64,000 nucleotides of DNA from a phage: sequence record PZ026127.1. One strand, 5' to 3'. Positions 1,225 through 30,966 of the stretch are shown piece after piece. A program made the translations under genes and the position numbers. Positions within the stretch are counted from its first letter, which is position 1. Each line of letters opens with the position of its first letter. The notes beneath the pieces are model-generated. The model was given only the letters and a program-made list of their open reading frames with translations. It ran no database searches and had not been told where the DNA came from.

Positions 1225-2553
1225 ATGGAATTAACATCTCGTGGTTTAAAAAGTATTATCGACAACGAAGCATTGGCTTATGCAATGTATACTGTCGAAA
1301 ACCGAGCCATTCCAAATATGATTGATGGCTTTAAACCTGTACAACGTTTTGTAGTTGCTCGTTGTCTTGATATGGCTCGTGGTAATAAAGAAAAATTCCA
1401 CAAACTAGCTTCTATTGCAGGTGGCGTAGCCGACCTTGGATATCACCACGGTGAAGGTTCTGCTCAGGAAGCTGGCGCTTTGATGGCTAACACGTGGAAT
1501 AACAACTATCCACTGTTAGATGGTCAGGGTAACTTTGGTTCCCGATTGGTTCAAAAAGCTGCGGCCTCTCGTTATATCTTTGCACGCATTGGAAGTAACT
1601 TTGCAAAAGTTTATAAGGACACAGAATATGCTCCGGTTCATGCTGATGTCGAACATAAGCCACCGGCTTTTTATCTGCCTATTATTCCTACTGTTCTTCT
1701 TAATGGCGTTTCCGGTATTGCAACTGGTTATGCAACTAATATTCTTCCTCATAGTTTTGATTCTGTTAAGAAAGCTGTATTGCAAGTTCTTCAGGAAAAA
1801 CGAGTAACCAAACCTAAAGTGGCTTATCCTGAATTCCGCGGTGATGTTGTTGAGATTGAACCAGGTAGTTATGAGATTCGTGGAACGTATAAGTTCACGT
1901 CTCGAACCCAAATGCATATCACAGAAATCCCATACAAATACGACCGTGAAACATATGTGGCCAAGATATTAGACCCTCTGGAAGAAAAAGGGTATATCAC
2001 ATATGATGATGACTGTGACGAGAACGGTTTCGGCTTCAAGGTTAAGATTCGTAAAGAATACGAATTGCCTACTGATGAAGATAAGAAGCATGAAAAAATC
2101 ATGAAGGACTTCGGGTTAATCGAACGTCGTTCACAAAACCTGACCGTCATTAATGAGAAAGGTAAACTTAAGGTTTACGAAGATGCAGTTGAACTGATTC
2201 GTGATTTCGTTGAGGTCCGTAAGACCTTTGTACAGAAACGTATTGATGGTAAAATCATCGAAACTGAAGAAGCTTTCAAACTGGCATTGGCTAAAGCCAC
2301 ATTTATCAAAGATGTTATTGATGGTGTAGTGGTTATCCAAGGTAAGACTCGTAAGGTTTTAACCGAAGAATTGGCCGGTAATAAAGTCTATGGCGAATAT
2401 GCCGATAAACTAGTGGCCATGAACATTTTCCATATCACTTCTGATGAAGCTAAGAAACTGGCTTTGGAAGCCAAGGCTAAGAAAGAAGAGCATCAATATT
2501 GGAAAACCACTGATGTGGTAACTGAGTATGTTAAAGATTTGGAGGCTCTATGA
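1225..2553 (+). CDS. 52: DNA topoisomerase II medium subunit
   Basis: 442 aa, same length as T4 gp52; topo II A-subunit-like N-terminus (IIDNEALAYAMYTVENRAIP...); followed by intrinsic terminator. Confidence 0.9.
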   Translation: MELTSRGLKSIIDNEALAYAMYTVENRAIPNMIDGFKPVQRFVVARCLDMARGNKEKFHKLASIAGGVADLGYHHGEGSAQEAGALMANTWNNNYPLLDGQGNFGSRLVQKAAASRYIFARIGSNFAKVYKDTEYAPVHADVEHKPPAFYLPIIPTVLLNGVSGIATGYATNILPHSFDSVKKAVLQVLQEKRVTKPKVAYPEFRGDVVEIEPGSYEIRGTYKFTSRTQMHITEIPYKYDRETYVAKILDPLEEKGYITYDDDCDENGFGFKVKIRKEYELPTDEDKKHEKIMKDFGLIERRSQNLTVINEKGKLKVYEDAVELIRDFVEVRKTFVQKRIDGKIIETEEAFKLALAKATFIKDVIDGVVVIQGKTRKVLTEELAGNKVYGEYADKLVAMNIFHITSDEAKKLALEAKAKKEEHQYWKTTDVVTEYVKDLEAL

Positions 2554-2652
2554 GCCTTGGAGTCGAGTTCTTGTTACTCTGTATCTTTGCTGTTATCCTA
2601 GGCCTGGCGACAGGCTTAGCTATAGGTTTAATAGCAGCCCACTTTAAAAAGT

Positions 2653-2677
2653 AAGGAACCTTCGGGTTCCTTTTTTT
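2653..2677 (+). terminator. intrinsic terminator after gene 52
   Basis: GGAACC-TTCG-GGTTCC stem-loop followed by T7. Confidence 0.7.
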
Positions 2678-2696
2678 GGGTTTAGTGCAAAAAAGT

Positions 2697-2728
2697 GTTT
2701 ACATCTGCTTTAAACATGATACTATAGA
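2697..2728 (+). promoter_or_regulatory. early promoter upstream of motA
   Basis: GTTTACA ... TGATACTATAGACC; member of repeated promoter family. Confidence 0.6.
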
Positions 2729-2763
2729 CCTATCAAATAAATGAACTGAAACGGAGATACAAA

Positions 2764-3399
2764 ATGTCTAAAATTACTTATATCATCAAAGCTTCTGAAG
2801 ACGTCCTGAATGAAAAAACTGCTTCGATCTTAGTACATATCATCAAGCATAACTTCATCACTTCAGGCGAAGTCCGTGAAGCCCTGAGTGAGCAATTTAG
2901 TGCAGCAGTGGTTAACTCTAACATCGGTGTATTGATTAAGAAAGGATTCATCGAAAAATCTGGTGACGGTTTAGTGGCTACAGGTGAAGCAATGGACCTG
3001 GTTCAAAAAGCTGCCGACCTGTTCGCTTCTGAAAATGCTCCAGAGATGTTGGAAAAACGTAAAACGCGTAGTTCACGTGGTGTTACTCCTGAAATGGTAA
3101 CACTGGCTGATGAAGTTAAAGCTTTATTAGAAGACCGTATCGAGATTCGTGAAATTGCTGAAAACCGTAGCAACCTTGAAGTTCGATTCGCTAAACGTAC
3201 CAATGGTATTCGTCAAATTGAAGTCCGTCGTGATGGAATGATGCGTATCTTCGGTTATAATATGACTGATAAAGAAAAACAAGTGTTTACTTCCTTGAAT
3301 CTTGATGTTAAGATTAAGACTGGTGGTAAGAATACTTATATCGACTTCCAAAACGTATCATCTGAAGTTATCAAAACCGTAACCAACGCAATTATCTGA
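2764..3399 (+). CDS. motA: MotA middle-transcription activator
   Basis: 211 aa (T4 MotA 211 aa); N-terminus MSKITYIIKAS.DVLNEKTA and ...SNIGVLIKKG..EKSGDGL match remembered T4 MotA; own early promoter. Confidence 0.85.
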   Translation: MSKITYIIKASEDVLNEKTASILVHIIKHNFITSGEVREALSEQFSAAVVNSNIGVLIKKGFIEKSGDGLVATGEAMDLVQKAADLFASENAPEMLEKRKTRSSRGVTPEMVTLADEVKALLEDRIEIREIAENRSNLEVRFAKRTNGIRQIEVRRDGMMRIFGYNMTDKEKQVFTSLNLDVKIKTGGKNTYIDFQNVSSEVIKTVTNAII

Positions 3400-3413
3400 C
3401 TGAGGAAATTATT

Positions 3414-3743
3414 ATGAACAAGCTGAATATTGTTAATGAACTTCGTCGTTGTGCAGAACCTACTCAAGAAGGTTGGGATATTTGGTACCACGGTGCTTAC
3501 CTCGGCACTATTGTTAAGATTAAAGCAGGTAAATACTTAATCATCCGTGGTGGTTCTGAAGCTTCTATGGGTATTCGCAAAAACTTTATGGCAGCAATCA
3601 GCACCTTTGTTCCGGCGGCCTACGAAGTTTATAAAGCGGACTACAAAGAATACCAGGAATCACAGCCGGTTATTCGTTCAATTGGTGTTAATAAAGCTCA
3701 ACAGAAAACTTTATGGCAACGTGTTAAAGGATGGTTCAAATGA
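3414..3743 (+). CDS. hypothetical early protein
   Basis: 109-aa ORF with RBS GAGGAAA; motA-asiA accessory region. Confidence 0.5.
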   Translation: MNKLNIVNELRRCAEPTQEGWDIWYHGAYLGTIVKIKAGKYLIIRGGSEASMGIRKNFMAAISTFVPAAYEVYKADYKEYQESQPVIRSIGVNKAQQKTLWQRVKGWFK

Positions 3744-4078
3744 TTCCGATGGAACTTGACTGGGACGGCGAAGGCCATTCCCTTAAATTAATCGAAGAGC
3801 AGCGTAATGATTGGGACGAGCGTGTAGCTCTGGTAAACGGTATTAAGAAAATTTATCAACTCAATCTCCAGATTGATAACGTTCATCTTGAATTTGGTAT
3901 GCAGTTATTACGATTTCTTGAGATTATTTTTATTGAAAAGGTAAATATAACTTCGTATGGCGAGGGCCAAACAGTTGATATTAAATTATCATCCTATTAT
4001 AAAGGTGATTTAATTGAAACTGCCACCAAAATTCAAGAATTTGCTAAAGATAATGGCCATAAGGTGATTTTCAAATGA
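3740..4078 (+). CDS. hypothetical early protein
   Basis: ATGA overlap with upstream ORF; track ORF trimmed to internal ATG. Confidence 0.45.
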
Positions 4079-4563
4079 ATCCATTAAAAGCTAAAGAATT
4101 ATCCTTTAAACACCGTCTGGCTTTATTAGATAAAGCACTTTCTCGTGAGACGCCCGAAAGTCTAGCAGCTAAATTACAGGCCTATGGCGACTACACCGAA
4201 TATACGGAAGAGGATGTTCTGGAAGAGGTTCCTGAAATCTGTTGGCAGATTGCTCATTGGAACAACAATGAAAAATATCAGCGTCGGATTGTGTGTGCAG
4301 CCAACCGCTTTAAGTTAAAAGACGGTGGGACTCTGGTTATTCCTGGTGCTCGTCATTATTCTAAAGATATGGCTGAAGTTCTCGACCAGGTAAGTGATAA
4401 ACTTGTATCAGACCATGTTTGTGGTGATGACCAAGGATTTATTGACCAATATTCAAACTATTGGACTCGCGAAGAAGCAATGATTATTGCAACTTATGCT
4501 AATCAAGTTCGTATTGAACGTGGCGGTAGTGAAAAAGAACTTTACTCTGAGGACCTTTACTAA
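4075..4563 (+). CDS. hypothetical early protein
   Basis: 162 aa; ATGA coupling; RBS AAGGTGA. Confidence 0.5.
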
Positions 4564-4844
4564 TGAATCTTAAACAACTCCAAATTGATGCAATCGAAGC
4601 CCATATTAATCATGTTAAACGTCTGAATGTCATGGTGGAAGATAATTGGGGAACTTATGTGAACCAACCAGCTTGGGATGCCTTAGACCATGAATATATA
4701 AAGAATATTAGTTCTAAGACAATCCATGGTAATATGGAAGGGTTGAAGCCGTTCCTACGTGATATGTATATTGCAACTAATAAAGAAATTATCAGCTCTC
4801 TTGAATATCAATTAAGGAAATTACGTGAACAATCTGGTAGCTAA
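4563..4844 (+). CDS. hypothetical early protein
   Basis: 93 aa; TAATG coupling. Confidence 0.5.
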   Translation: MNLKQLQIDAIEAHINHVKRLNVMVEDNWGTYVNQPAWDALDHEYIKNISSKTIHGNMEGLKPFLRDMYIATNKEIISSLEYQLRKLREQSGS

Positions 4845-4933
4845 GCACGATTTCAATAAGGCTTCTGTCCATAAGGACAAGAAGAAAAATCTTAAAGAGT
4901 CTAAACGTAAGCAGAAACATAAGGGTAAAGGCT

Positions 4934-5218
4934 ATGATTACTAAGCTCCACACACATAAAGTAACGGAACTGGTTATTCTCATCGATGAGCTTTTTAAAA
5001 TCTATGCTTCTGTACCAGCGGAAATCTTTACAGAAATTCTTTGCGATTTGGATAGTAGCTTTGCCTATATCCAGCCAGAATACGTCATTCAGTTCTTTGG
5101 TGAACGTCCCGGTTATGCTAAAGTAGTTTTTGGCCCCGGATTAGATGAAGAACAAGTTTTAAGAGAAATCCAAGAAGAAATTGATGACTTTGGATTAGAA
5201 GATTACATTGAGGAATAA
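4934..5218 (+). CDS. hypothetical acidic protein (position compatible with an Arn-like gene)
   Basis: 94 aa, highly acidic C-terminus (EEIDDFGLEDYIEE); only positional resemblance to T4 arn. Confidence 0.4.
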   Translation: MITKLHTHKVTELVILIDELFKIYASVPAEIFTEILCDLDSSFAYIQPEYVIQFFGERPGYAKVVFGPGLDEEQVLREIQEEIDDFGLEDYIEE

Positions 5219-5220
5219 TT

Positions 5221-5379
5221 ATGAGTCATAACTTAGAGAATACCGTAACAGGCATGCGTACACGTGAGCAGGAGTGCTTTGAGGAATTCCTGGGAGCTGA
5301 TTTTAAGTTCCAGGAACCAATAGAAGAGATGTATCAGGAATATGTTAAAAAGAACGAAGGACATGTTTACAATCCCTAA
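5221..5379 (+). CDS. small hypothetical protein (52 aa)
   Basis: ORF read by eye, RBS GAGGAA upstream; below track cut-off. Confidence 0.3.
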   Translation: MSHNLENTVTGMRTREQECFEEFLGADFKFQEPIEEMYQEYVKKNEGHVYNP

Positions 5380-5395
5380 GGATATGTTAGTATAG
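5365..5395 (+). promoter_or_regulatory. early promoter upstream of asiA
   Basis: GTTTAC, 17 nt, TAGTAT. Confidence 0.5.
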
Positions 5396-5434
5396 CCATA
5401 TCAGATAATGTCGTACTGAATTGAAGAGAATATT

Positions 5435-5710
5435 ATGACTAAAATTGAAATCGTTTCCGAAATTGCCACTATTGTTTCCATTTTGATTAAAACGGATTGT
5501 GAAGACATCATGCAACGTCGTGATGAGTTTATTGCCTTTTTGAATGAGTTAGGTATTCGTAATGAACATGGAAAGGAACTTAATGGTTTGTCTTATAACA
5601 AATTATTTAAGTCTTTAACTGAAGATGAGCGTGAAACTCTTATTGAGCAATTTAATGAAGGGTATGAAGATATACACCGTTATTTAATGATGTATACCTC
5701 CAATTTCTAA
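5435..5710 (+). CDS. asiA: AsiA anti-sigma70 factor
   Basis: 91 aa (T4 AsiA 90 aa); VSILIK...FIAFLNE.G...LIEQFNEGYE...RYL.MYT matches remembered AsiA. Confidence 0.85.
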   Translation: MTKIEIVSEIATIVSILIKTDCEDIMQRRDEFIAFLNELGIRNEHGKELNGLSYNKLFKSLTEDERETLIEQFNEGYEDIHRYLMMYTSNF

Positions 5711-6360
5711 CGTGTTCGACCTAATGTCCTCCCGGCTTGACCACACATAGACGAAAGTCTAGGAAATCCTAAATCCGGTTTGATATCATACCAGTACAAC
5801 GATATCGAGCCGGCGTAGACGTTATCCAAATTAAAAAACGGGCATGAAAACATATACGTGAATTGTGTTTTCTTCTTTGTAGGGAGAAACACTGATTCAG
5901 TACTTGATTCAAAATAGTTCCCGTTAACTCCCGCCATATATTCTACTGACGTTTTGTCAATTGGAAACCCTCCCGTGTTTTTTGCGTCTACCGTTTCCGG
6001 TAATTTACCCTCGTAAGCCACCATATCCACAAAATAATTCATGTTGGTTGGTCTAAAAGAATATATTGCTGTGAAGTCTGCGCCTGAAGAAGAATGCACT
6101 ATTCGGAGCTGCTCGATAGCCGCAATTTTAAATCTATTGTCCTGGTCTTGTCTAATCATTTCAGTATAAGAGGCATAAGTTGTCTCTTTGTAAAAGTTTA
6201 GAATATACTCGCCTTTATACCAAACCAATGCCATAAAGAACAATAATATTACGACTAGGACCCGGGAAAAAACAACTTTCCCGGAAGAAGTATCTTTAAA
6301 AATTCTATCAAGAAGTCCAAAAAGTAGGTCTGATAATGATATTCCTACTTTTGGTTCCAT
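5707..6360 (-). CDS. t: holin T
   Basis: 217 aa (T4 T 218 aa); LSDLLFGLLDRIFKD..GKV..SRV.VVILLFFMA.VWY and C-terminal SMCGQAGRTLGR match T4 holin; late promoter and RBS upstream. Confidence 0.9.
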   Translation of the reverse strand: MEPKVGISLSDLLFGLLDRIFKDTSSGKVVFSRVLVVILLFFMALVWYKGEYILNFYKETTYASYTEMIRQDQDNRFKIAAIEQLRIVHSSSGADFTAIYSFRPTNMNYFVDMVAYEGKLPETVDAKNTGGFPIDKTSVEYMAGVNGNYFESSTESVFLPTKKKTQFTYMFSCPFFNLDNVYAGSISLYWYDIKPDLGFPRLSSMCGQAGRTLGRTR

Positions 6361-6391: not shown

Positions 6392-7189
6392 TTAACTAAG
6401 CCAAGGGCCGTAAATCGTACCGGTCGCGCCCCATGCAGGAGCAGAAACGGCAACAGCAGCTCCAGAACCGCCCGCTGCCCCAACTTTAAGAACTTTACCA
6501 CCATCATTCCATGCGTTCTGGCCTGCGGCGCCAGCATCACCGCCATGACCTGAGTGGGCGTTACCATAATTGTATCCACCGCCAGGGCTTTCATAAGAAG
6601 CACCACCACCGGAGTATCCACCACCGCCACCAGGACCAAATGGACGTCCACCACCACCACCGATATCTTGCCAGTTAGCACCTGAGTGAGGACGATACGC
6701 AATGCCACCACCGCCACCACCACCGCCACAGATAACCCCATAGTTCCAAATACGTAGTCTATGACCTATATGGTTGACTATACAATCACCGCCCCATTGA
6801 CCGTTACCGTCGCCACCTGAATGGGTCCACCCACCGTGGCCGCCTCGGCCCCACATATGCACGCCTCCATGAATAGTCAAATTGACATATTCATTAGGTG
6901 TGTCGGCATTCATAAAGAACAATGGAACATTACGGTCGTAAGATACTATATCGCCTGTGATATTAAACACAATAGGTGCGCTGCCTGCTTCAAAACAGCG
7001 GTCGCGGAACCACTGGCCATTAAAATTATGGTTTGCTGTTATGGTGTGAATTACTTCAACAGACCGACCGTTCATATTACTCATCCAAAATGGGACACCC
7101 ATTCTTAATCTTACAGCGGCTCCTGCCATCCAAGGGTCTCCTGTCTGCGCCCTTGCAGAAGTTCCTATCCACGGTCCTGCTACTGCCAT
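6392..7189 (-). CDS. 38: long tail fibre tip adhesin gp38 (T2/T6-type, glycine-rich motifs)
   Basis: Poly-glycine motifs ([23 protein letters not shown]) separating variable segments in C-terminal half; ATG with GGAGG RBS; track ORF begins at upstream TTG (7201). Confidence 0.8.
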
Positions 7190-7220
7190 ATAAACCTCCA
7201 AGGGGCCGAAGCCCCTCTTA

Positions 7221-17991: not shown

Positions 17992-18641
17992 TTAAGATTC
18001 GCATGCCACCAAACAATAACCGTATGGTGAATGGTAAGAGCGTATATTCACTATACTTAATGCTCAAACATCACTTCAATGCCAAATACGACGTTATAAA
18101 ATATAACTGGGTCATGCGAATCTCTGATACGGCTTATCAAAAACGTCGTGACAAATATTTCTTTGAGAAATTGAGTGATAAATACACTTTGAAAGAGCTT
18201 GCTCTTATTTTCATGAGTAACTTGGTGGCTAACCAAGACGCATGGATTGGCGACATCAGTGATGCCGACGCCTTAGTCTTTTACCGAGAATATATCGGTA
18301 GACTTAAAAGAATAAAACAAGTTTTTGAGGATGATATCAAAAACATCTATTATTTCAGTAAGAAAGTGGAAGTTAAAGCGCTTTCTGAAATTTTTGATTA
18401 TAATAAAAAAGTTAACTCGAGCTATATTTTTAAGCTCCTTCAATCGAATGTTATTTCATTCGAAACGTTTATTTTGCTTGATTCATTTATGGATATAATT
18501 GATAAACATGATGAACAGACCAACGATTTAGTGTGGTCTAAGTATTCGACTAAATTAAATGCTTATAAGAAAATTCTTATAATCGATAATTTAGAAGCTC
18601 GTAAATTGTTCATTGAAACTATCAAATCTTGTAAGTTTTAA
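17988..18641 (+). CDS. 59: helicase loader gp59
   Basis: 217 aa (T4 gp59 217 aa); DVIKYNWVMR.SD.AYQKRRDKYFF.KLS.KY.LKELALIF.SNLVANQDAWIGDISDADALVFYREYIGRLK near-identical to T4. Confidence 0.9.
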   Translation: MIKIRMPPNNNRMVNGKSVYSLYLMLKHHFNAKYDVIKYNWVMRISDTAYQKRRDKYFFEKLSDKYTLKELALIFMSNLVANQDAWIGDISDADALVFYREYIGRLKRIKQVFEDDIKNIYYFSKKVEVKALSEIFDYNKKVNSSYIFKLLQSNVISFETFILLDSFMDIIDKHDEQTNDLVWSKYSTKLNAYKKILIIDNLEARKLFIETIKSCKF

Positions 18642-18666
18642 TGCTTCAAACCAACTGTGTTAATAT
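18640..18666 (+). promoter_or_regulatory. MotA-dependent middle promoter of gene 32
   Basis: MotA box AATGCTTCA about 12 nt upstream of TAATAT -10. Confidence 0.5.
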
Positions 18667-18730
18667 ACTAACTCAATCTGTTAAAAACTGTTAATAAAAT
18701 ATAACTGCTAAATCTGCTAAGGTAAATAAT
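18667..18730 (+). promoter_or_regulatory. gene 32 5' leader / putative autoregulatory translational operator
   Basis: AU-rich leader with repeated CUG(U/C)UAA-like motifs immediately upstream of gene 32 ATG; T4 gp32 autoregulates translation via its leader. Confidence 0.45.
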
Positions 18731-19636
18731 ATGTTTAAACGTAAAGACCCTTCCCAACTGGCTGCTCAACTGTCTGCAATGAAAGGTGGTTCTTCTTTCT
18801 CTTCCGATGATAAAGCTGAATGGAAATTGAAAGATGACAATGGCGTTGGTACTGCGGTAATTCGTTTCCTACCTTCGAAAAACGAAGAAAATCCATCTCC
18901 ATTCATTAAGCTCGTTAACCACGGCTTTAAGAAAAATGGTCAATGGTACATTGAAAACTGTACGTCTACACACGGTGATTTCGATTCATGTCCTGTATGT
19001 AAATACATGAACCAGAATGATACCTTTAATACTAATAATGCCGAATACAAACTGATGAAACGTAAAACTTCCTTCTGGGCTAACATCCTTGTTATTAAGG
19101 ATAGTGCAGTGCCTGCTAACGAAGGTAAAGTGTTTAAATTCCGTTTCGGTCAGAAAATTATGGATAAAATCAACCAGATGGTTGAAGTTGATACCGATAT
19201 TGGTGAAGTGCCGGTTGACGTAACATGTCCGTTTGATGGTGCGAACTTCGTACTGAAATCTAAGAAAGTTGGCGACTTCAAGAACTATGACGATTCCAAA
19301 TTCATGGGTCAGTCTGAAATTCCTAACATCAATGATGAAGCTTACCAAGCTAAATTGATGGAAGAAATGCACGACCTTTCTAAACTGCTCGATTTCAAAT
19401 CATTCGAAACTAACGAAGCCAAGTTTAAGAAAGTTGTTGGTACAGCTGCTCTTGGTGGTGCTGCCGCTAAAGCTTCTGCAGCCGCTGATAAGATTGGTGA
19501 TGACCTGGACGCATTCAGTGCAGACCTTGATGCATATGATTCTAAACCATCTACACCGACTCGTTCCACTACTCCTGAGCCGTCAGTAAGTCCTTCTGAT
19601 GACGATGGTCTGGACGACCTGTTAGCTGGTCTATAA
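18731..19636 (+). CDS. 32: single-stranded DNA-binding protein gp32
   Basis: 301 aa (T4 gp32 301 aa); IRFLPSKN...[27 protein letters not shown] and acidic C-terminus match T4 gp32. Confidence 0.95.
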
Positions 19637-19652
19637 GTTATTGATTTATAAT

Positions 19653-19677
19653 GGGAAGACTTCGGTCTTCCCTTTTT
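19653..19677 (+). terminator. intrinsic terminator after gene 32
   Basis: GGGAAGAC-TTCG-GTCTTCCC followed by T5. Confidence 0.7.
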
Positions 19678-19688
19678 GGCATTTAATG

Positions 19689-19717
19689 GTTTACAACGCC
19701 TTTAAACATGATACTAT
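19689..19717 (+). promoter_or_regulatory. early promoter (frd-upstream cluster, first)
   Basis: GTTTACAACGCCTTTAAACATGATACTAT; identical copy at 20401. Confidence 0.6.
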
Positions 19718-19746
19718 AGACCTATCAACTACATGAGGAAATAAAA

Positions 19747-20136
19747 ATGGAAATCGGTAAAACTTATGAACTTCGTCCTGAATGCATTAAAGACTTTATT
19801 GAAATGGACGAATATGAAAATAATAAAAGCATGGTCGGCCTTATCCAAGACAACGGCGGTTGGTTTGAAGTAAAGGATATGGTGACTATGGATGGCGACA
19901 AATTTGTGACTGAAATCGAATGCGCCAACGGCGAGATTTATAATGAAGTTGGGTTGGTGCCAAATTATTTTGAGTTGCATGAAGACGAGTTCTATTGCTT
20001 CCGTGAATATGTTGTGGAAGATAAAGAAATCGATGAGCCTATTGCTAAGGCCGGTGTGACTCAAATCCATTGCATTGTCACCGAACAGAACGTTGACCAA
20101 ATCATTGAACTTTTGCAAAAAACTTTTAAGGCCTAA
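19747..20136 (+). CDS. hypothetical early protein (frd-upstream cluster)
   Basis: 129-aa ORF with own early promoter and RBS. Confidence 0.5.
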   Translation: MEIGKTYELRPECIKDFIEMDEYENNKSMVGLIQDNGGWFEVKDMVTMDGDKFVTEIECANGEIYNEVGLVPNYFELHEDEFYCFREYVVEDKEIDEPIAKAGVTQIHCIVTEQNVDQIIELLQKTFKA

Positions 20137-20137
20137 T

Positions 20138-20398
20138 ATGACTAAAGATGATTTCCTGGATGCAGTAGAAAAAGCCAGTGAGAAATTTGAAGTGATGGGT
20201 GTACGAGTTCATAAAGACCGAAATTACGGGCTCGATATCCAAACTTATTCATTATGGCTTGTAGGTGAACATAGTCTTGTAACCACCTTAGTTATGGGTG
20301 TTGATGCCCAACCTTTACTGGTTAAATTTAGAAGTATGGAAAAAGCTACCAAAGAAATGATTAAACTTGGTAAATGGCTTGATAAAATTCAAAAATAA
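20138..20398 (+). CDS. hypothetical early protein
   Basis: 86 aa from ATG; track ORF extended upstream. Confidence 0.45.
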   Translation: MTKDDFLDAVEKASEKFEVMGVRVHKDRNYGLDIQTYSLWLVGEHSLVTTLVMGVDAQPLLVKFRSMEKATKEMIKLGKWLDKIQK

Positions 20399-20400
20399 AT

Positions 20401-20429
20401 GTTTACAACGCCTTTAAACATGATACTAT
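20401..20429 (+). promoter_or_regulatory. early promoter (repeat copy)
   Basis: 41-nt identity with promoter at 19689. Confidence 0.6.
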
Positions 20430-20461
20430 AGACCTATCAACTAATGAGTGAGGAAAATAAA

Positions 20462-20689
20462 ATGGCTAAGGTTAATATTGATATCGTTGATTTTGAATAC
20501 ACTTACGAAGTTATCCGTAATCGTTATCCTTCTTTAGTTATGACCCATATTAAAGATACTCAATTCTGTAGTATGCAAATTGAAGTCCAAGGTCCTCTTG
20601 AAGACCTTACCCGCTTTATGGCTGACGAGTATTGTGACGGTATGCACCCGGAAGACGCTAAATTTTATATGGGCTTAATTCAAAAATAA
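20462..20689 (+). CDS. hypothetical early protein
   Basis: 75 aa; RBS GAGGAAAATAAA; own early promoter. Confidence 0.5.
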
Positions 20690-20719
20690 GTTTACACCAG
20701 GCTATGGTAGTGATACTAT
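20690..20719 (+). promoter_or_regulatory. early promoter
   Basis: GTTTACA ... TGATACTAT. Confidence 0.55.
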
Positions 20720-20744
20720 AGCCTTATCAACTAAGGAGAATAAA

Positions 20745-22433
<1,689 letters not shown>

Positions 22434-22494
22434 AAATTCAAATAATCTGTACTCTGTTTTTGGTTATTATGGTCGGGCTGAATTTGGTGCTATA

Positions 22495-22788
22495 ATGAGA
22501 GTCTGTAGAGTTGTTAACAAGTATAAAGAAGATTTTGATGTCAACATCCAACGTGGAACTATGTGGGGTAATCCATTTAAAGATGGAACCCGCGAGGAAA
22601 ACATCAAGAACTTTAAAGAATACTTTATTGCTAAAATAAAATCGGGCGAAATTAAAAGAGAACATCTTGAAACCCTTAGAGGTATGCGTATAGCGTGTAC
22701 CTGTAAACCTAAGGACTGTCATGGGGATGTGATAGCCTTGATTGTTAACAAACTTTTCAAAGACACGTTCTCATTAGAAGACCTATAA
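22495..22788 (+). CDS. hypothetical protein with GNPF and C.C...C.HGD motifs
   Basis: 97-aa ORF between td and nrdA; conserved-looking WGNPF and CTCKPKDCHGD motifs; family not confidently identified. Confidence 0.45.
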   Translation: MRVCRVVNKYKEDFDVNIQRGTMWGNPFKDGTREENIKNFKEYFIAKIKSGEIKREHLETLRGMRIACTCKPKDCHGDVIALIVNKLFKDTFSLEDL

Positions 22789-22854
22789 ATATCAGTCCAT
22801 GCTTAACAGGTTCTATGATAGAATAATTGTAGAACCTAACATATTGAGGAAATT

Positions 22855-25110
22855 ATGCAAGTACAAAAAAGTAGTGGTGTATCCCAAGATTTTGACGCAC
22901 AAAAAATTATTAAAGTTCTGACTTGGGGCTGTGAAGGAACCCAAATCGACCCCTATGAATTATACGAAGAAATCAAATCTCATCTTCGTGATGGTATGAC
23001 TACCAAAGATATCCAAAATCTGACTGTTAAGGTAGCAGCCAACCTTATTTCAGTTGAAGAGCCTGATTACCAATATGTTGCTGCAAAGCAATTGATGTTT
23101 GCACTGCGTAAAGAAGTTTATGGCCAGTTCGAACCACGTAGCTTTATCGACCATATTTCCTATTGTGTTAACGAAGGTAAATATGACCCTGAATTGCTGT
23201 CTCGATATTCTGCAGAAGAAATTACTTTCTTAGAATCTCATATCAAGCATGAACGTGACTTTGAATTGACCTATGCAGGTGCGATGCAGCTGAAAGAGAA
23301 ATATCTGGTTAAAGATAAGACTACGGGTAAAATCTACGAAACCCCTCAGTTCGCTATCATGTGTATTGGCATGGCCTTACACCAAGAAGAGCCAGGTAAT
23401 CGTTTGGCACATATTATTCGTTTTTATGATGCTGTAAGTACCCGTCAGGTTTCATTACCAACTCCTATTATGGCTGGAGCACGTACACCTACCCGTCAAT
23501 TTAGTTCTTGTGTGGTTATTGAAGCAGGCGACTCACTGAAATCTATTAACAAAACTGCTAACTCAATAATTGAATACATTTCTAAACGTGCAGGTATTGG
23601 TATCAACGTTGGTATGATTCGTGCTGAAGGTTCTCGTATTGGCATGGGTGAAGTCAAACATACTGGCGTTATTCCATTCTGGAAACATTTCCAGACTGCT
23701 GTTAAATCATGTTCACAAGGTGGAATCCGTGGCGGCGCTGCTACTGCTTATTATCCTATTTGGCATTTGGAAGTTGAAAATCTGCTCGTTCTGAAAAACA
23801 ACAAAGGCGTAGATGAGAACCGTATTCGTCATATGGACTACGGAATCCAGATGAACGACCTTATGATGGAACGTTTCGGTAAAAATGATTACATCACGCT
23901 GTTTAGTCCTCATGAAATGGGTGGTGAGCTTTATTATTCTTATTTCGAAGACCAAGACCGTTTCCGTGAATTGTATGAAGCAGCTGAAAAAGACCCTAGT
24001 ATTCGTAAGAAACGTATTAAAGCACGTGACCTCTTCGAATTGTTCATGACCGAACGTTCAGGCACTGCACGAATTTATCCTCAGTTCGTTGATAACACTA
24101 ACAACTTCACACCATTTATTCGTGAAAAAGCTCCTATTCGACAGAGCAACTTGTGTTGTGAAATTGCTATCCCGACTACTGACGTGAATAGTCCGGACGC
24201 TGAAATTGGTTTGTGTACGTTGTCTGCATTCGTATTGGATAACTTCGATTGGCAGGACCAAGACAAAATCAACGAGCTCGCTGAAGTCCAGGTACGTGCA
24301 CTTGATAACCTATTGGACTACCAAGATTATCCTGTTCCTGAAGCTCTGAAGGCCAAGAAACGTCGTAATCTAGGTGTTGGTGTTACTAACTACGCCGCTT
24401 GGTTGGCAAGCAACTTTGCTTCTTATGAAGACGCTAATGATTTAACTCATGAACTGTTTGAGAGATTACAATATGGACTTATCCGAGCATCAATCAAGTT
24501 GGCCGAAGAAAAAGGACCTTGCGAGTATTATTCAGACACTAAATGGTCTCGAGGCGAATTACCTATCGACTGGTACAATAAAAAGATTGACCAAATCGCA
24601 GCCCCTAACTATGTTTGTGACTGGACGTCGTTGCGGGAAGACTTGGCTAAACATGGCATCCGTAATAGCACATTATCAGCACTTATGCCGTGTGAATCAA
24701 GCAGCCAGGTTTCCAACTCTACAAACGGTATCGAACCTCCACGTGGTCCGGTAAGTATTAAAGAATCTAAAGAAGGTAACTTCCGTCAGGTAGTTCCTAA
24801 TGTAGAACATAACCAAGGACTCTACGATTACGCTTGGAGCCTCGCTAAGAAAGGTAATAAACCTTATCTTACCCAAGTGGCAATAGCGTTGAAATGGGTG
24901 TGTCAATCAGCATCAGCGAATACATATTACGACCCGCAGATTTTCCCAAAAGGAAAAGTTCCGATGTCGGTAATGCTTGATGACCTGCTGTATTTCTGGT
25001 ACTACGGCGGTAAGAACCTTTACTATCATAACACCCGTGATGGCTCTGGTACTGATGACTACGAAATCGAAACTCCTAAAGCCGACGATTGTGCAGCTTG
25101 TAAGCTTTAA
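22855..25110 (+). CDS. nrdA: ribonucleotide reductase large subunit
   Basis: 751 aa (T4 NrdA 754 aa); class Ia RNR features including C-terminal Cys pair (CAACKL). Confidence 0.95.
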   Translation: MQVQKSSGVSQDFDAQKIIKVLTWGCEGTQIDPYELYEEIKSHLRDGMTTKDIQNLTVKVAANLISVEEPDYQYVAAKQLMFALRKEVYGQFEPRSFIDHISYCVNEGKYDPELLSRYSAEEITFLESHIKHERDFELTYAGAMQLKEKYLVKDKTTGKIYETPQFAIMCIGMALHQEEPGNRLAHIIRFYDAVSTRQVSLPTPIMAGARTPTRQFSSCVVIEAGDSLKSINKTANSIIEYISKRAGIGINVGMIRAEGSRIGMGEVKHTGVIPFWKHFQTAVKSCSQGGIRGGAATAYYPIWHLEVENLLVLKNNKGVDENRIRHMDYGIQMNDLMMERFGKNDYITLFSPHEMGGELYYSYFEDQDRFRELYEAAEKDPSIRKKRIKARDLFELFMTERSGTARIYPQFVDNTNNFTPFIREKAPIRQSNLCCEIAIPTTDVNSPDAEIGLCTLSAFVLDNFDWQDQDKINELAEVQVRALDNLLDYQDYPVPEALKAKKRRNLGVGVTNYAAWLASNFASYEDANDLTHELFERLQYGLIRASIKLAEEKGPCEYYSDTKWSRGELPIDWYNKKIDQIAAPNYVCDWTSLREDLAKHGIRNSTLSALMPCESSSQVSNSTNGIEPPRGPVSIKESKEGNFRQVVPNVEHNQGLYDYAWSLAKKGNKPYLTQVAIALKWVCQSASANTYYDPQIFPKGKVPMSVMLDDLLYFWYYGGKNLYYHNTRDGSGTDDYEIETPKADDCAACKL

Positions 25111-25163
25111 TAAAATCTGATTATAATTGACTCATGGATGAGTCACTAACAAATGAGAATAAC

Positions 25164-26342
25164 ATGTCTACAGTTTTTAATACCACCCCAGTTGATGTTT
25201 TAGTCGAACCGATGTTCTTTGGTTCAGGATTGGGTATTGCCCGTTATGATATCCAACGTCATAAAGTATTCGAAGAGCTTTGTGAAAAGCAGTTGAGTTT
25301 TTTCTGGCGTCCAGAAGAAGTCAACTTGATGATGGATGCTGCTCAATTTAATAAGCTTCCACAATTCCAACAAAATATTTTTACCAATAACCTGAAGTAT
25401 CAATCACTTCTGGATAGTATCCAAGGACGTGCTCCTTCTGCTGCACTTCAAGCCTTGATTTCAGACCCTAGCCTTGATACATGGGTGGCTACATGGACCT
25501 TTAGTGAGACTATTCACTCTCGTTCATATACCCATATCATGCGTAACCTCTATACAGACCCGTCAAAGGTATTTGATGAAATTCTGTTAGATGACGCTAT
25601 TATGAAACGTGCCGAATCTATTGGTCGTTATTACGACGACGTTATTGAGAAAACTCGCTATTGGCAGAATGCTAAAGCTGATATCGAATACCAAAAAGAA
25701 ATTAATGCAGACGAAGACGATATTGAAGATGCTATTGAGCATGAGATGTATTGGAAGCGTGAGCTAATGAAATCCCTTTACCTTTGCCTTCATGTAATCA
25801 ACGCATTGGAAGCTATTCGTTTTTATGTATCTTTCGCATGCACCTTTAACTTCCATAAAAACATGGAAATCATGGAAGGTAATGCTAAGATTATGAAGTT
25901 CATTGCACGTGATGAACAGCTTCACCTTAAAGGTACTCAGTACATTATTCGTCAACTCCAACTTGGTACTGACGGTGACGAATGGGTTAAAATTGCTCAA
26001 GAGTGTGAACAAGAAGCAGTTGATATTTTCATGGAAGTTAACCGTCAAGAAAAAGAATGGGCTGCTCATCTGTTCAAAGATGGTACTTGCCCTGGATTAA
26101 ATACTCAGAACATGGGTGCTTTTGTCGATTACCTGACAGTTTCTCGTATGAAGCAATGTGGCTTACCGTGTCCTATTACTGATGCTCCTGCCCGCCATCC
26201 TTATCCTTGGATTCGCGAATACCTGAACTCTGATGCTGTACAGGCTGCTCCTCAGGAAGTGGAAATCAGTTCTTACCTTGTAGCACAAATTGATAACGAT
26301 GTCGATGAAAAAGTAATGGCATCGTACAAGAAATATTTTTAA
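25164..26342 (+). CDS. nrdB: ribonucleotide reductase small subunit (uninterrupted)
   Basis: MSTVFNT.PVDVL.EPMFFG start matches T4 NrdB; continuous ORF, no intron; alternative upstream ATG at 25134. Confidence 0.9.
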   Translation: MSTVFNTTPVDVLVEPMFFGSGLGIARYDIQRHKVFEELCEKQLSFFWRPEEVNLMMDAAQFNKLPQFQQNIFTNNLKYQSLLDSIQGRAPSAALQALISDPSLDTWVATWTFSETIHSRSYTHIMRNLYTDPSKVFDEILLDDAIMKRAESIGRYYDDVIEKTRYWQNAKADIEYQKEINADEDDIEDAIEHEMYWKRELMKSLYLCLHVINALEAIRFYVSFACTFNFHKNMEIMEGNAKIMKFIARDEQLHLKGTQYIIRQLQLGTDGDEWVKIAQECEQEAVDIFMEVNRQEKEWAAHLFKDGTCPGLNTQNMGAFVDYLTVSRMKQCGLPCPITDAPARHPYPWIREYLNSDAVQAAPQEVEISSYLVAQIDNDVDEKVMASYKKYF

Positions 26343-26369
26343 GGAATGGGGCTTCGGCCCCTTATTGCT

Positions 26370-26783
26370 ATGAAAGAAATCGCAGACGAATTTAGCTTTA
26401 TCAAGTACGTCACCCTAGAACTCCAAGATGACGCCAGCATTGCTCCACTCACAGTACCAAATAAACAAAATGTCATATATGCTATAGCGGTTGATGATAT
26501 ACTAGTCTACATCGGGAAGACTAAAAATCTTCGTAAGCGCATCAACTACTACCGAACCGCTATTAATCGTAAGGACCAAACGTCAGATTCGACCAAGTCC
26601 ATTCTGATTCATGAAGCATTAATGGCAGGTAAAAAGGTAGAGTTCTATGCACGGCAGTGCTTTAATCTGTCGATGACTAACGAACTTGGAACTATGTCAG
26701 TTGAGACCATGTCTCTTGAAGAGCCAATGTTCATAAAGAAATTTAATCCACCTTGGAATACCCAACATAGGATAAAGCAATGA
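26370..26783 (+). CDS. denA: endonuclease II (GIY-YIG family)
   Basis: MKEIA.E.SFIKY..LEL.D...I..L..PNK.NVIYAIA..D.LVYIGKTKNLRKRINYYRTAINRKD.TSDSTKS near-identical to T4 DenA. Confidence 0.85.
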   Translation: MKEIADEFSFIKYVTLELQDDASIAPLTVPNKQNVIYAIAVDDILVYIGKTKNLRKRINYYRTAINRKDQTSDSTKSILIHEALMAGKKVEFYARQCFNLSMTNELGTMSVETMSLEEPMFIKKFNPPWNTQHRIKQ

Positions 26784-27928
26784 TTGAATTATATGATAAC
26801 TTGATGGCCCTGGTTAAAAACTCGACTAAATCTAAGTTCTTCTTTAAAGACTTTCAGAGTGCGCTAGGAGTCAACTATCGCATCTTTAGTTATAACTATG
26901 CATCGTACAGTGATTGGTTGGAAGACGGCGCACTAGAGTGCCGAGGCATTATGTTTGAAATGGACGAGAACGGTCCAGTACGTATTGCTGCTCGTCCTAT
27001 GCAAAAGTTCTTTAACCTTGACGAAAACCCTCTGACCATCGGTCTAGATTTGTCACCAGAAAATATTGACCTCGTAATGGCTAAGGAAGATGGTTCTCTG
27101 ATTTCTACATTCATGGACCGACAGTATCTTTCTGTTAAATCTAAAGGCTCTATCCATTCATCAATGGTGCATGATTCTTTACGGTTCCTTCGTCTCCCTG
27201 AGAACGAGGCTTTTGCCGCACGTCTAGAAGAAATCACCAAAGCTGGGTATACCTGCAACCTTGAATATGTTGCACCTACCAACCGTATCGTGCTGGCTTA
27301 CCAAGAAACAAATCTCATCCTGTTGAACGTTCGTAATAATGAAACCGGTGAATATATTCCATATGCGGAATTGTTTAAGGACGGCGCACTGCGTAAGCAT
27401 TTGGTTGAAAGCTATGAGCTCGCTGAGGGCGATTTCGTAGAAAACATCCGTAAGCAGGAAGGCATTGAAGGTTTCATCTTTGTACTGAAAGATGGTACGT
27501 TCTTTAAACTCAAAACCGCCTGGTACAGTGCACTGCATCATACCAAAGATTCCATTAACAACAACGAACGTTTGTTTGAAGTTGTAGTGGCTGGTGGAAC
27601 TGATGACCTTCGTGGTCTGTTCAGTACAGATTCCTTTGCTATCGAGAAAATCGATGCCTTTGAACGCATCCATTTAGATTACCTAGAACAATCATTAGCC
27701 TTGTTAGAAGCAGCTTACTCTCAACTCAAAGGTCGCGACCGTAAAGACTATGCCGTTACTGGACAGCTAATCCTTAAGGACTTCCCAGGGTTGTTCTCTA
27801 TTCTTATGCAGGCGTACGTAGGCGGTATTAATTATGATACGGTCATGGACCAGATTAACTCTGTGTTCTTGAAAAATCATAAGGCCCAAATCCCTGAAAA
27901 ATATTTGAAAGAAATTGTGGTAGAGTAG
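26780..27928 (+). CDS. rnlA: RNA ligase 1
   Basis: 382 aa; YRIFSYNYASYSDWL...ALECRGIMFEMD...PVRIA.RPM.KFFNL.ENP match T4 Rnl1. Confidence 0.9.
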   Translation: MIELYDNLMALVKNSTKSKFFFKDFQSALGVNYRIFSYNYASYSDWLEDGALECRGIMFEMDENGPVRIAARPMQKFFNLDENPLTIGLDLSPENIDLVMAKEDGSLISTFMDRQYLSVKSKGSIHSSMVHDSLRFLRLPENEAFAARLEEITKAGYTCNLEYVAPTNRIVLAYQETNLILLNVRNNETGEYIPYAELFKDGALRKHLVESYELAEGDFVENIRKQEGIEGFIFVLKDGTFFKLKTAWYSALHHTKDSINNNERLFEVVVAGGTDDLRGLFSTDSFAIEKIDAFERIHLDYLEQSLALLEAAYSQLKGRDRKDYAVTGQLILKDFPGLFSILMQAYVGGINYDTVMDQINSVFLKNHKAQIPEKYLKEIVVE

Positions 27929-27956
27929 TTTACATCTCCTCATGACGTGTTAGTAT
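27926..27956 (+). promoter_or_regulatory. early promoter upstream of alc-like gene
   Basis: GTTTACA, 17 nt, TAGTAT. Confidence 0.5.
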
Positions 27957-27986
27957 AGACTTACCAACTAATGAGGAGAAAACAAA

Positions 27987-28487
27987 ATGAATATGCAAAT
28001 GATTACTAACGAAATGGTTGTTAAGGCTTTTGGTGACTCTACTGACGGCATCCAAGTTTTTAAAGGTTCTCGTGCAGTAGGTTACCTGACCGATCTTCGT
28101 GTCACTTTAGCTAAAAATGCTAAAAAGAAAATCAAGCAAAAAGAATACTCTACCCGTTATGCAGAAGAAAAGCGTGAAGCCATGCCGGAAGCTGTTAACT
28201 CTATGGTTGAGTTTCTCCAAAATAACCTTTCCAAGTACGATGCCGAGGTATTCATTAATATTAGCCAACCTAATGTTAAAATCTCAGGCATCACTTTCTA
28301 TTTGATTTGTGACCCATTAAGCGACAAGTTTAATCGCCTTGGCATTTCAAGTCCTTACCATACTGCTGAAGAATTATGTTTTATGTTTGAAACGTATAAA
28401 ATTCAGTGTGAAAATCCTAAAACGGTTCTTATTAATTCCCTGTCACGTGATGACATCATCGAGATTATTACCAAATGTCTAAATTAA
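27987..28487 (+). CDS. hypothetical early protein (position and size compatible with Alc)
   Basis: 166 aa (T4 Alc 167 aa); synteny rnlA-alc-pseT.3; no sequence-level confirmation. Confidence 0.45.
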   Translation: MNMQMITNEMVVKAFGDSTDGIQVFKGSRAVGYLTDLRVTLAKNAKKKIKQKEYSTRYAEEKREAMPEAVNSMVEFLQNNLSKYDAEVFINISQPNVKISGITFYLICDPLSDKFNRLGISSPYHTAEELCFMFETYKIQCENPKTVLINSLSRDDIIEIITKCLN

Positions 28488-28828
28488 GTATTTACCTTTT
28501 AGCTGGAGCCATTGCAGTAGGTGCTTATGGTTTTATTTCGTATCAATCAAGTCGTATTGATACCCTTACTGAAGAACTGAAAACAACCCAGCAAACGGCC
28601 AAACAGAATGCCGAAGCCGTAGATGACCTACGTGGCCAATACTCTGATATTGAATTCCGTACTACTGAAATGAATGCCCGAATGGATAAAATTAAGGTAG
28701 AAAATGAAAAGCTCCGTAAAGATTCGAAGAAGGCGCACGTGGTGGCAAGTAAGCCAGGATTGGTCGAAAAACAAATCAACAAGTCCTTCGATTCCTTTAC
28801 AGAAGACTTCAGGAGCATTACAGAATGA
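28475..28828 (+). CDS. i-spanin (inner-membrane spanin, Rz-like)
   Basis: 117 aa; N-terminal TM helix (LSIYLLAGAIAVGAYGFISY) then charged coiled-coil region; synteny with T4 pseT.3. Confidence 0.65.
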   Translation: MSKLSIYLLAGAIAVGAYGFISYQSSRIDTLTEELKTTQQTAKQNAEAVDDLRGQYSDIEFRTTEMNARMDKIKVENEKLRKDSKKAHVVASKPGLVEKQINKSFDSFTEDFRSITE

Positions 28829-29115
28829 TTAAATTATCTGTGGTAGTATTATCTATTGGCTTGTTAGTTGGATGTGCCCAGGACATCCCTGTAGTGCCTA
28901 AGCAACAACTACATCCTTCATGGCCACAACCTATTGCCAAACATAATGTTAAATGGCAGGTTAAGGTAATCGATGGTAAAGCTTGGGTTGGAATGCCATT
29001 TGAAGATTCCCAAGAACATCGTATTTGGTTGAATGACGTAAAAAGATATGTACAAGACCAGAAATCTATGTTATGTTATTATCGTTCTGGACTAAAAGAG
29101 GAGAAGTGCAAATGA
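28825..29115 (+). CDS. o-spanin (outer-membrane lipoprotein spanin, Rz1-like)
   Basis: 96 aa; lipoprotein signal with lipobox LLVGC; proline-rich mature region; ATGA overlap with i-spanin. Confidence 0.65.
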   Translation: MIKLSVVVLSIGLLVGCAQDIPVVPKQQLHPSWPQPIAKHNVKWQVKVIDGKAWVGMPFEDSQEHRIWLNDVKRYVQDQKSMLCYYRSGLKEEKCK

Positions 29116-29218
29116 TTGAAGCGTGTACTGATGGATGGGATATCGTTCGATTCGGTTTTGTCTGCTTTTGTTTTGGAATTCTGATTAGTATATGTATTGG
29201 CGGTCTTTTCGGAAAGTA

Positions 29219-29248
29219 GTTTACAAACTCATGGGAGCAGAGTATAAT
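29219..29248 (+). promoter_or_regulatory. early promoter
   Basis: GTTTAC, 18 nt, TATAAT. Confidence 0.55.
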
Positions 29249-29282
29249 GCTCCTACGGATTATAAAAATCGAGGAAATTATT

Positions 29283-29761
29283 ATGACTTTACGTGATAAC
29301 AGTTTTGTGGCTAAGCCTGAATACATTTCAGGCGTTAAATCTCCTGTATTACAAAAGCTCTTAAAATTAGGGTCCTGTGCAAGTACACCAATTGAAAAGA
29401 AGGCAACTTTCGATTTTGCTTGGGCTATGGTAGACGGTATTGATGTAGTAAGACAGGTATCTTTTTATGCTCCAGGGTCTATTGAGCCTTCGCAGATTAT
29501 TAATTTGAATGGAAGTAATTATATTACCGTCCAACAGTGGTATCGTATGATGCGCCCGGTTTGGGAATACCCTGAATTCATTGAAGAGTACAATGAAAAA
29601 GAACGTATTCGCGAGCTAGTAAAAAGTTTTGAATATGCGGCTAAACGCCATGGACAAATGCAATCCGCAGTAACCCTCGGTGATGTTCCTGAAAGTGTTG
29701 CTTACGAATCAGGTAAAACCCTTAAAACTTGCCGTGAAGAACTTTATAAGGAACTTGGTGT

Positions 29762-29765: not shown

Positions 29766-30965
<1,200 letters not shown>

Positions 30966-30966
<1 letters not shown>

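Follow-up and report, generated by a model that had tools for sequence, protein, structure and literature searches.

The interval between motA and asiA, the genes for the two middle-transcription factors, is filled in T-even phages by a run of small genes, and the question it raises is what these genes are for. We examined a 64-kb stretch of the phage sequence record PZ026127.1 (the window), in which an earlier note had described six small open reading frames (ORFs) in this interval (3414-5379, + strand) as candidates for host takeover or anti-defence functions. Sequence comparison shows the region to be the Dhakavirus version of the T-even arn operon, orthologous and syntenic with those of T4 and RB69. 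The cluster as such is already known, being an ordinary, annotated part of T-even genomes. Its seven coupled small genes, probably co-transcribed with motA, most likely constitute an anti-defence or host-takeover cassette (probability roughly 0.7), and homology between one product, Arn.3, and the bacterial antitoxin CmdA is a new, testable lead to what one of them does.

Megablast searches gave 90-97% DNA identity to the Dhakavirus T-even phages JS10, Bp7, IME08, IME341, PSD9 and KIT01, identifying the source phage by sequence as a JS10/Bp7/IME341-like T-even Dhakavirus; several Dhakavirus records already label genes here arn.4, arn.3 and arn.2. The six ORFs, encoding 52-162 amino acids (aa), lie where the earlier note had placed them, between flanking motA and asiA genes supported by Pfam, and they are tightly coupled as it had described, with ATGA overlaps at ORF1/ORF2 and ORF2/ORF3, a TAATG overlap at ORF3/ORF4 and a gap of 2 nucleotides (nt) between ORF5 and ORF6. 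Its suggestion that this is the T4 arn region was borne out by the comparison: the T4 reference order is motA, arn.4, arn.3, arn.2, arn.1, arn, asiA.1, asiA, and RB69 has the same order, with the unnamed ORF259c in the arn slot. The view that the six ORFs have no recognizable domains and cannot be assigned proved wrong. Five have orthologues among the named T4 genes, all six match PHROG families (E = 1e-35 to 1e-73), and a conserved seventh gene, a 39-aa DUF7230 ORF at 4825-4944, had been missed. The six are not uniformly homologous to characterized housekeeping genes, as the T4 homologues other than arn are uncharacterized, and a June 2026 preprint on T2 still describes arn.1-arn.4 in this way (bioRxiv 10.64898/2026.06.19.733364).

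Nei-Gojobori comparisons with JS10, IME341 and TH57 gave ratios of non-synonymous to synonymous substitution rates (dN/dS) that lie within 0-0.28 for each ORF, and synonymous changes were numerous. All seven cluster genes are shown by this measure to be under purifying selection, indicating that they are real protein-coding genes and not chance ORFs.

ORF3 is the orthologue of T4 arn.3 (73-76% identity to T4 Arn.3). It has 383 detected homologues, which carry the Pfam family PF26092 (T4_Y16D, named after an uncharacterized T4 protein) as a precomputed assignment. In an alignment of 41 sequences, the motifs RIVCAANR, GxRHY, QGFxDQ, TREEA and LxSEDLY of the C-terminal core of about 110 residues are invariant or nearly so (R93, H94, Q120, D124 and R132 being among the invariant residues), and the core is predicted to be confidently folded (predicted local distance difference test score, pLDDT, >90), the protein ending in ...SEDLY. 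No solved structural relative of this globular domain was found. A Foldseek search of viral models (BFVD) recovered the fold in many unrelated phages, in every case in uncharacterized proteins, along with weak matches of low template modelling (TM) score to 'large polyvalent protein' entries, which we take as a lead only. Sub-threshold Pfam matches to DNA_gyraseB and Prok-E2_B for ORF3, and to mSLOG and Ntox17 for Arn.3 homologues, were treated as noise, and a full-text literature search for arn.3 returned the 2026 T2 preprint alone (bioRxiv 10.64898/2026.06.19.733364).

The N-terminal module of Arn.3 matches a component of a known defence system. PADLOC aligned ORF3 residues 9-41 with positions 2-34 of the profile PD-T4-9_B (E = 1.7e-8), and 15 of the 41 Arn.3 homologues match the same profile (best E = 2e-12), always at positions 1-31 of its 77; the module of T4 Arn.3 is more degenerate (PADLOC E = 0.009). 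PD-T4-9 is CmdTAC, an abortive-infection system directed specifically at Tevenvirinae, in which CmdT is an mRNA ADP-ribosyltransferase toxin, CmdA its antitoxin and CmdC a SecB-like chaperone; CmdA consists of an N-terminal helix pair followed by a disordered tail ending in Leu-Ala-Ala (LAA) (PMC11618068).

CmdA itself was not recovered by tblastn on plasmids and phages (a Cupriavidus match lies inside a porin gene and is due to chance), by a pattern scan of genome contigs or by a profile search of the PDB. Its sequence was obtained from the 5' end of cmdA given by primer CV115 (PMC11618068 supplement), which blastn placed in three complete Escherichia coli genomes. The E. coli N2250 locus encodes a CmdT of 192 aa, a CmdA of 77 aa and a SecB-like protein whose gene adjoins a P2-type portal gene; this CmdA begins MLSFEQRMALLNKALQQYNPESLYEKLSSY and ends ...ELDLAA. 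The system is rare among complete E. coli genomes (3 of 5,426 matched the 54-nt probe), and at loci L094 and L096 it occupies the same P2-like prophage spot, between a DinI-like gene and the portal gene.

Residues 9-40 of ORF3 are identical to residues 2-33 of the N2250 CmdA at 18 of 32 positions (56%; BLASTP E = 3e-9), and the closest homologue, P0110, matches CmdA at 28 of 65 positions (E = 2e-14). An hhalign comparison of the Arn.3 family with CmdA gave 96% (E = 4e-9). CmdA has each of the seven residues (F, R, L, L, P, S, L) that never vary in the Arn.3 module, the match covers exactly the two predicted Arn.3 helices, and no other protein in the window matches CmdA. These alignments show the Arn.3 N-terminus to be homologous to the antitoxin. 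Two surveys had noted, without interpretation, 'a component of PD-T4-9' in phage genomes (bioRxiv 10.1101/2024.12.24.630238, 10.1101/2024.10.26.620412), and such reports of its enrichment most likely reflect matches to the Arn.3 N-terminal module, not a defence system carried by the phage.

Arn.3 is not a toxin-antitoxin-chaperone (TAC) antitoxin. It has neither the disordered chaperone-addiction tail with an Ala-Ala ClpX degron nor the toxin-antitoxin-chaperone operon; its neighbours are ORF2/arn.4 and arn.2, with no ADP-ribosyltransferase toxin upstream and no SecB-like chaperone downstream. A search of the window with CmdT was negative (best E = 1.2), none of the cluster proteins resembled it at the profile level, and Arn.4 was rejected as a CmdT-like toxin partner (hhalign 0.2%).

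A possible, if doubtful, interpretation of the alignments is that Arn.3 is a modular anti-abortive-infection factor, with pirated CmdA toxin-binding helices set on a degradation-resistant domain. The CmdA-like helices would serve to bind an mRNA ADP-ribosyltransferase toxin of the CmdT family, or some other partner, and the T4_Y16D core, in place of the addiction tail and LAA degron, would make Arn.3 chaperone-independent and ClpXP-resistant. On infection, when CmdA is degraded and CmdT released, stable Arn.3 bearing the same helices would keep CmdT-family toxins inactive. The module varies among Arn.3 homologues, some of which have it while others have a replacement, a duplicate or none: in some phages the protein begins with an alternative N-terminus (MIPMELDW...), and P0002 (203 aa) has a Dhakavirus-type and then a T4-type CmdA-like module, one after the other, before a single core. 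Such swapping, loss and duplication is expected of an arms-race adaptor. If the interpretation is true, the alternative N-termini (MIPMELDW..., tandem modules or none) would serve as exchangeable adaptors directed at other targets, and arn would be just one of several anti-defence genes that form an island in this operon. The homology offers the first concrete hypothesis for a gene found in hundreds of sequenced T-even phages.

Several observations weigh against this role. The ECOR22 CmdTAC reduces plating of T2, T4, T6 and 10 of 12 BASEL Tevenvirinae 100- to 100,000-fold, Bas35 and Bas38 being the two that escape, and T4 escape mutants mapped to alt.-3, not to arn.3 (PMC11618068). T-even phages with the module are still restricted, so whatever inhibition of that CmdTAC Arn.3 may exert is not general. 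The similarity may reflect ancestry alone, or specificity for other CmdT variants.

Ancestry without functional interplay, with Arn.3 activity residing in the T4_Y16D core and unrelated to CmdT, is a serious contender to which we would give slightly less than even odds. CmdA could have been domesticated by a host or prophage from a phage Arn.3-type gene, or the phage could have captured the module long ago; today the module could be a generic helical hairpin for dimerization or for packing on its own core. Consistent with this, the similarity between P0110 and CmdA continues beyond the helix pair as far as the first core strand, as if a longer segment were of common descent. Most core homologues have no such module, and in a survey of 78 viral Arn.3 loci, 40 of them T-even-type (motA-asiA context), the core lies outside that context in 38. 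No recurrent neighbour beyond close relatives was found in 35 loci outside T-even phages, and no Pfam domain in longer fusion proteins carrying the core. On the other hand, the phage and host versions of the module have remained 56% identical, with no invariant residue lost, while the rest of the proteins is unrelated, which points to continued selection on the same binding surface, and it sits in exactly the phage group that CmdTAC targets, beside a proven anti-restriction gene.

That gene, arn, is represented here by ORF5. As the earlier note had stated, the product is strongly acidic, with an isoelectric point (pI) of 4.17 and a net charge of -15 (21 D+E vs 6 K+R). It is 25-26% identical to T4 Arn over the full length (BLASTP/tblastn), and the two proteins have acidic columns in common and the same C-terminal ...EDY(I/F)E. 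ORF5 matches phrog_3151, 'inhibitor of McrBC restriction', at E = 1e-6; phmmer against the whole PDB returned 3WX4, the T4 Arn structure, as the top match with an end-to-end alignment (E = 0.008); and hhalign of the Dhakavirus and Mosigvirus ORF5 family against T4 Arn gave 75% (E = 2.6e-5). Like arn, ORF5 lies directly upstream of asiA.1/asiA. In a fold test against 3WX4 the ORF5 model has the fold of T4 Arn, and this predicted Arn fold bears out the suggestion that the acidic protein is of the DNA-mimic type.

Against reading ORF5 as an Arn-type member of an anti-defence cassette, the sequence statistics alone are marginal at this level of identity, the AlphaFold training set is the PDB, which includes 3WX4, and the gene is dispensable, being cleanly absent from many Dhakaviruses (NC-G, QL01). 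When the ORF5 family profile was run against 1.8 billion representative proteins, the matches were limited to its own family and a Mosigvirus-type relative, with T4 Arn absent at E <= 0.001. Arn of the T4 type is restricted to Tequatrovirus, whose 485 records are all 88% identical or more; the ORF5 type has 13 phage records (76-88% identity) and a Mosigvirus sister group of about 167 records with identities of about 32%. The arn slot therefore holds at least three deeply diverged lineages with a predicted Arn fold, in Tequatrovirus, Mosigvirus and Dhakavirus/Gaprivervirus. They widen a one-member DNA-mimic family and provide natural variants for probing McrBC-type recognition.

In the passages of PMC12707154 that cite Ho et al. 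2014, T4 Arn inhibits McrBC restriction of non-glucosylated hydroxymethylcytosine (hmC) DNA, is proposed to be a DNA mimic, and binds H-NS and inhibits its DNA binding. By analogy, ORF5 would act as a highly acidic, probably dimeric DNA mimic in the DNA-binding site of McrBC-type (type IV) enzymes, protecting cytosine-hypermodified phage DNA before its sugar modification is complete, and might also target H-NS. In the close relative JS10 (locus L097, JS10 18000-36000), the part of the genome that corresponds to b-gt and gene 42 of T4 has a different content (L097 4759-5457, 6370-8043): a thymidylate-synthase-family gene, for a probable deoxycytidine monophosphate (dCMP) hydroxymethylase, in the gene-42 slot, beside it a gene for a 557-aa nucleotidyl-transferase/kinase fusion, and several genes of unknown type. 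This gene content suggests that Dhakavirus hmC carries a non-glucose sugar modification, and it fits hmC-type sugar-modified DNA, the McrBC substrate class, making an McrBC inhibitor biologically sensible.

The cluster could instead serve mainly host takeover, with the Arn-like mimic titrating H-NS or other nucleoid or DNA-binding proteins and its neighbours acting, together with MotA and AsiA, on the transcription, translation or nucleoid of the host. The binding and inhibition of H-NS ascribed to T4 Arn in those same passages would fit, as would the position between the genes for the two middle-transcription factors, the status of arn.4, arn.3 and the DUF7230 gene as a conserved core and not fast-turnover accessories, and the strongly basic DUF7230 peptide, as expected of a nucleic-acid or ribosome binder. 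T4 Arn, however, has a genetically defined anti-McrBC phenotype (PMC12707154). The arn slot also turns over among three divergent lineages and is lost in some phages, which is typical of anti-defence genes, and the CmdA-like module of Arn.3 points to a defence system. We regard takeover as the main function as rather unlikely. Coordinates of the genes and signals discussed are collected in Table 1.

Table 1. Genes and candidate signals of the motA-asiA interval (window coordinates).
Feature	Position	Strand	Product (aa)	Description
Sigma-70-type early-promoter-like site before motA	2698-2725	+		TTTACA-16-TACTAT, TG upstream; consensus scan
motA, left boundary	2764-3399	+		Pfam MotA_activ (E = 3.6e-39) and MotCF (E = 9e-14); 50% identity to T4 MotA
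ORF1, arn.4 orthologue	3414-3743	+	109	Basic, pI 9.7; Pfam Phage_T4_Y16F (PF26821); phrog_1594 (E = 2e-53)
ORF2, lineage-specific, apparently inserted gene	3740-4078	+	112	ATGA-coupled ATG at 3740; alternative ATG at 3731 (115 aa); phrog_14178 (E = 5e-68)
ORF3, arn.3 orthologue	4075-4563	+	162	Pfam PF26092 (T4_Y16D); two-helix N-terminal module, linker, conserved core of ~110 aa
CmdA-like module inside arn.3	4099-4194	+		Residues 9-40; predicted helices 11-23 and 27-36
ORF4, arn.2 orthologue	4563-4844	+	93	phrog_1844 (E = 1e-40)
Seventh gene, DUF7230	4825-4944	+	39	Lysine-rich, pI 10.1; GTG start, AAGGA Shine-Dalgarno; Pfam DUF7230
ORF5, diverged Arn homologue	4934-5218	+	94	Predicted DNA-mimic inhibitor of McrBC-type restriction
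ORF6, asiA.1 orthologue	5221-5379	+	52	Acidic; phrog_5245 (E = 7e-35)
Early-promoter-like site for asiA	5366-5393	+		TTTACA-16-TAGTAT, TG; inside ORF6 3' end; consensus scan
asiA, right boundary	5435-5710	+		Pfam AsiA (E = 6e-22); 51% identity to T4 AsiA

The earlier note had also held that T-even genomes differ most in this region, which is true of part of the cluster only. In the 40 T-even-type loci, motA and asiA are constant and arn.4 (39/40), arn.3 (39-40/40) and the DUF7230 gene (40/40) form a conserved core; arn.2 is found in 32 loci, and arn.1 (21), asiA.1 (17), either type of arn (16) and ORF2 (7) are the variable slots. The cassette is mosaic across genera as well. In TH57 (Gaprivervirus, locus L013), arn.3 and arn.2 are 96% and the arn-like gene 88% identical to those of the Dhakavirus studied here, but the flanking MotA is only 41% and AsiA 78% identical. 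Near-identical arn.3 and arn.2 beside so divergent a MotA indicate that the cassette moves horizontally between genera.

ORF1 is 78-84% identical to T4 Arn.4, with 83% identity over all 109 codons of the T4 frame (BLASTP, tblastn), and 77% identical to RB69 Arn.4 over 109 aa; its Pfam family name was taken from a homologue's record. Comparison with JS10 and IME341 showed no non-synonymous and 16-17 synonymous changes. The ancestral start codon of arn.4 reads ATA in the T4 reference (L004 3455-3457, corresponding to NC_000866 ~162954-162956, complement), where the gene is annotated from an internal Met as 68 aa; the reading frame remains open through the 41 upstream codons, with 83% identity to this phage, and other T4-like contigs have an ATG start and a 109-aa product. 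Judging from these frames, T4 arn.4 is probably mis-annotated or a start-codon mutant.

No homologue of ORF2 was found in T4 or RB69 by BLASTP or tblastn, and its relatives are limited to 5 clusters among 5.8 billion proteins and to 7 of the 78 Arn.3 loci; its dN/dS is 0.03-0.14. A sub-threshold Pfam match to Ribosomal_S10 was treated as noise. ORF2 opens with a 20-residue leader that in other genera forms the start of Arn.3 homologues (P0021, P0035, P0044; Serratia phage X20 and others), and the junction TTCAAATGA is repeated at both ends of the gene, suggesting insertion by recombination at the coupled stop/start (regions 3740-3800 and 4066-4080). It appears to be an inserted gene whose arrival split the start of an ancestral arn.3 or displaced it.

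ORF4 is 38% identical to T4 Arn.2 and 62% identical to the RB69 copy over its full length, with a dN/dS of 0.02-0.04. Weak NCBIfam and PDB matches of ORF4 and its family profile to RaiA/HPF ribosome hibernation factors (E = 0.06-0.15) cover only a C-terminal helix and occur in just 1 of 13 Arn.2 family members, and this assignment was rejected as a chance helix match. ORF6 is 41% identical to T4 AsiA.1 across the first 29 aa (MSHNLE...) and occupies the position of asiA.1 in T4 and RB69.

The seventh gene, encoding MNNLVAKHDFNKASVHKDKKKNLKESKRKQKHKGKGYDY, spans the 89 nt that separate ORF4 from ORF5, with overlaps of 20 nt with arn.2 and 11 nt with ORF5. The encoded protein scores 49.0 bits against DUF7230 (PF23876; E = 6.4e-13), above the gathering threshold (cutoff 27), and matches phrog_1359 at E = 8e-23. 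The protein is 82-95% identical in T4, RB69, TH57 and JS10 (82-85% in T4 and RB69), whereas the sequences on either side of the gene are unalignable between genera; comparison with T4 gave 15.5 synonymous and 7.5 non-synonymous substitutions. Its conservation equals that of the named genes around it, yet the T4 reference leaves it without annotation (NC_000866 161583-161699, complement; L004 2084-2200), where it extends over the last part of arn.1 and the first part of arn. That ORF2, ORF6 and this 39-aa ORF are chance frames or decaying remnants is highly improbable. Their small size (39-112 aa), the scarcity of relatives of ORF2 and ORF5 (4-5 clusters) and the resemblance of ORF2 to an insertion product would favour it, but the dN/dS values of 0.03-0.28 with many synonymous changes largely refute chance frames, and the frames are intact across genera, with Shine-Dalgarno sequences, start/stop coupling and existing Pfam or PHROG families.

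In the proposed cassette, arn.4, the lineage-specific ORF, arn.3, arn.2, the DUF7230 mini-protein gene, the arn-like gene and asiA.1 would follow one another in a promoter-proximal position. A terminator-like hairpin (2653-2672) lies just upstream of the early-promoter-like site before motA, and this candidate site is the likely start of a motA-arn transcript; the consensus scan showed no terminator-like sites on the + strand at 3400-5400. No MotA-box/-10 motif occurs directly upstream of ORF1, the only consensus match nearby being inside motA (2820-2843). The whole window has 25 copies of the MotA-box-like motif TGCTT-N13-15-TANNNT where 11.9 would be expected, a count reached in none of 100 shuffles, and such an excess is expected for a phage with MotA/AsiA middle transcription. 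No Rfam family was matched in 2400-6000.

In T2, arn.4-arn form one transcript, which is stabilized by the host small RNA ArcZ (bioRxiv 10.64898/2026.06.19.733364). The ArcZ seed complement CCAGGGAAAT is found at the 3' end of T4 arn.2 (L004 ~2377-2400), as reported for T2. It is not in the arn.2 3' end of the Dhakavirus (4800-4850), from which arn.1 and its upstream intergenic RNase E region are also missing, and the ArcZ/RNase E control of T2 is thus probably not conserved in this phage.

Elsewhere in the window, the - strand gene at 6392-7201, adjoining the holin gene, encodes a 269-aa glycine-rich protein with GGGGGG runs. It forms a local GC peak (0.56 vs about 0.39 around it) and occupies the gp38 position, as do T2/T6-type adhesins; the corresponding RB69 gene is annotated as tail fiber/host specificity.

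The closest known system is the arn operon of T2 and T4, with which the Dhakavirus cluster has in common the motA/asiA flanks, the gene order and the arn.4-arn.3 and arn.3-arn.2 coupling, and from which it differs by the extra ORF2 between arn.4 and arn.3 and by having no arn.1. Compared with T4 Arn (3WX4), ORF5 represents a separate small lineage at 25-26% identity and is more acidic (net charge -15 vs -9). The predicted role of ORF5 resembles that of Ocr (T7) and ArdA, acidic DNA mimics that block restriction enzymes (PMC12707154); both are unrelated to Arn in sequence and fold and act mainly on type I restriction-modification and BREX systems, whereas the Arn family is directed at type IV McrBC.

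CmdA and Arn.3 have the N-terminal helix pair in common, but in Arn.3 it is fused to a folded T4_Y16D domain; CmdA belongs to a prophage defence locus, whereas Arn.3 is the product of a phage gene and has neither the tail nor the LAA degron. The proposed action of Arn.3 has a parallel in T4 Dmd, a phage-encoded antitoxin substitute directed against RnlA/LsoA that is not homologous to the antitoxin it replaces. In both cases an early protein of a T4-type phage would stand in for a labile host antitoxin, and the module of Arn.3, unlike Dmd, is homologous to the antitoxin itself.

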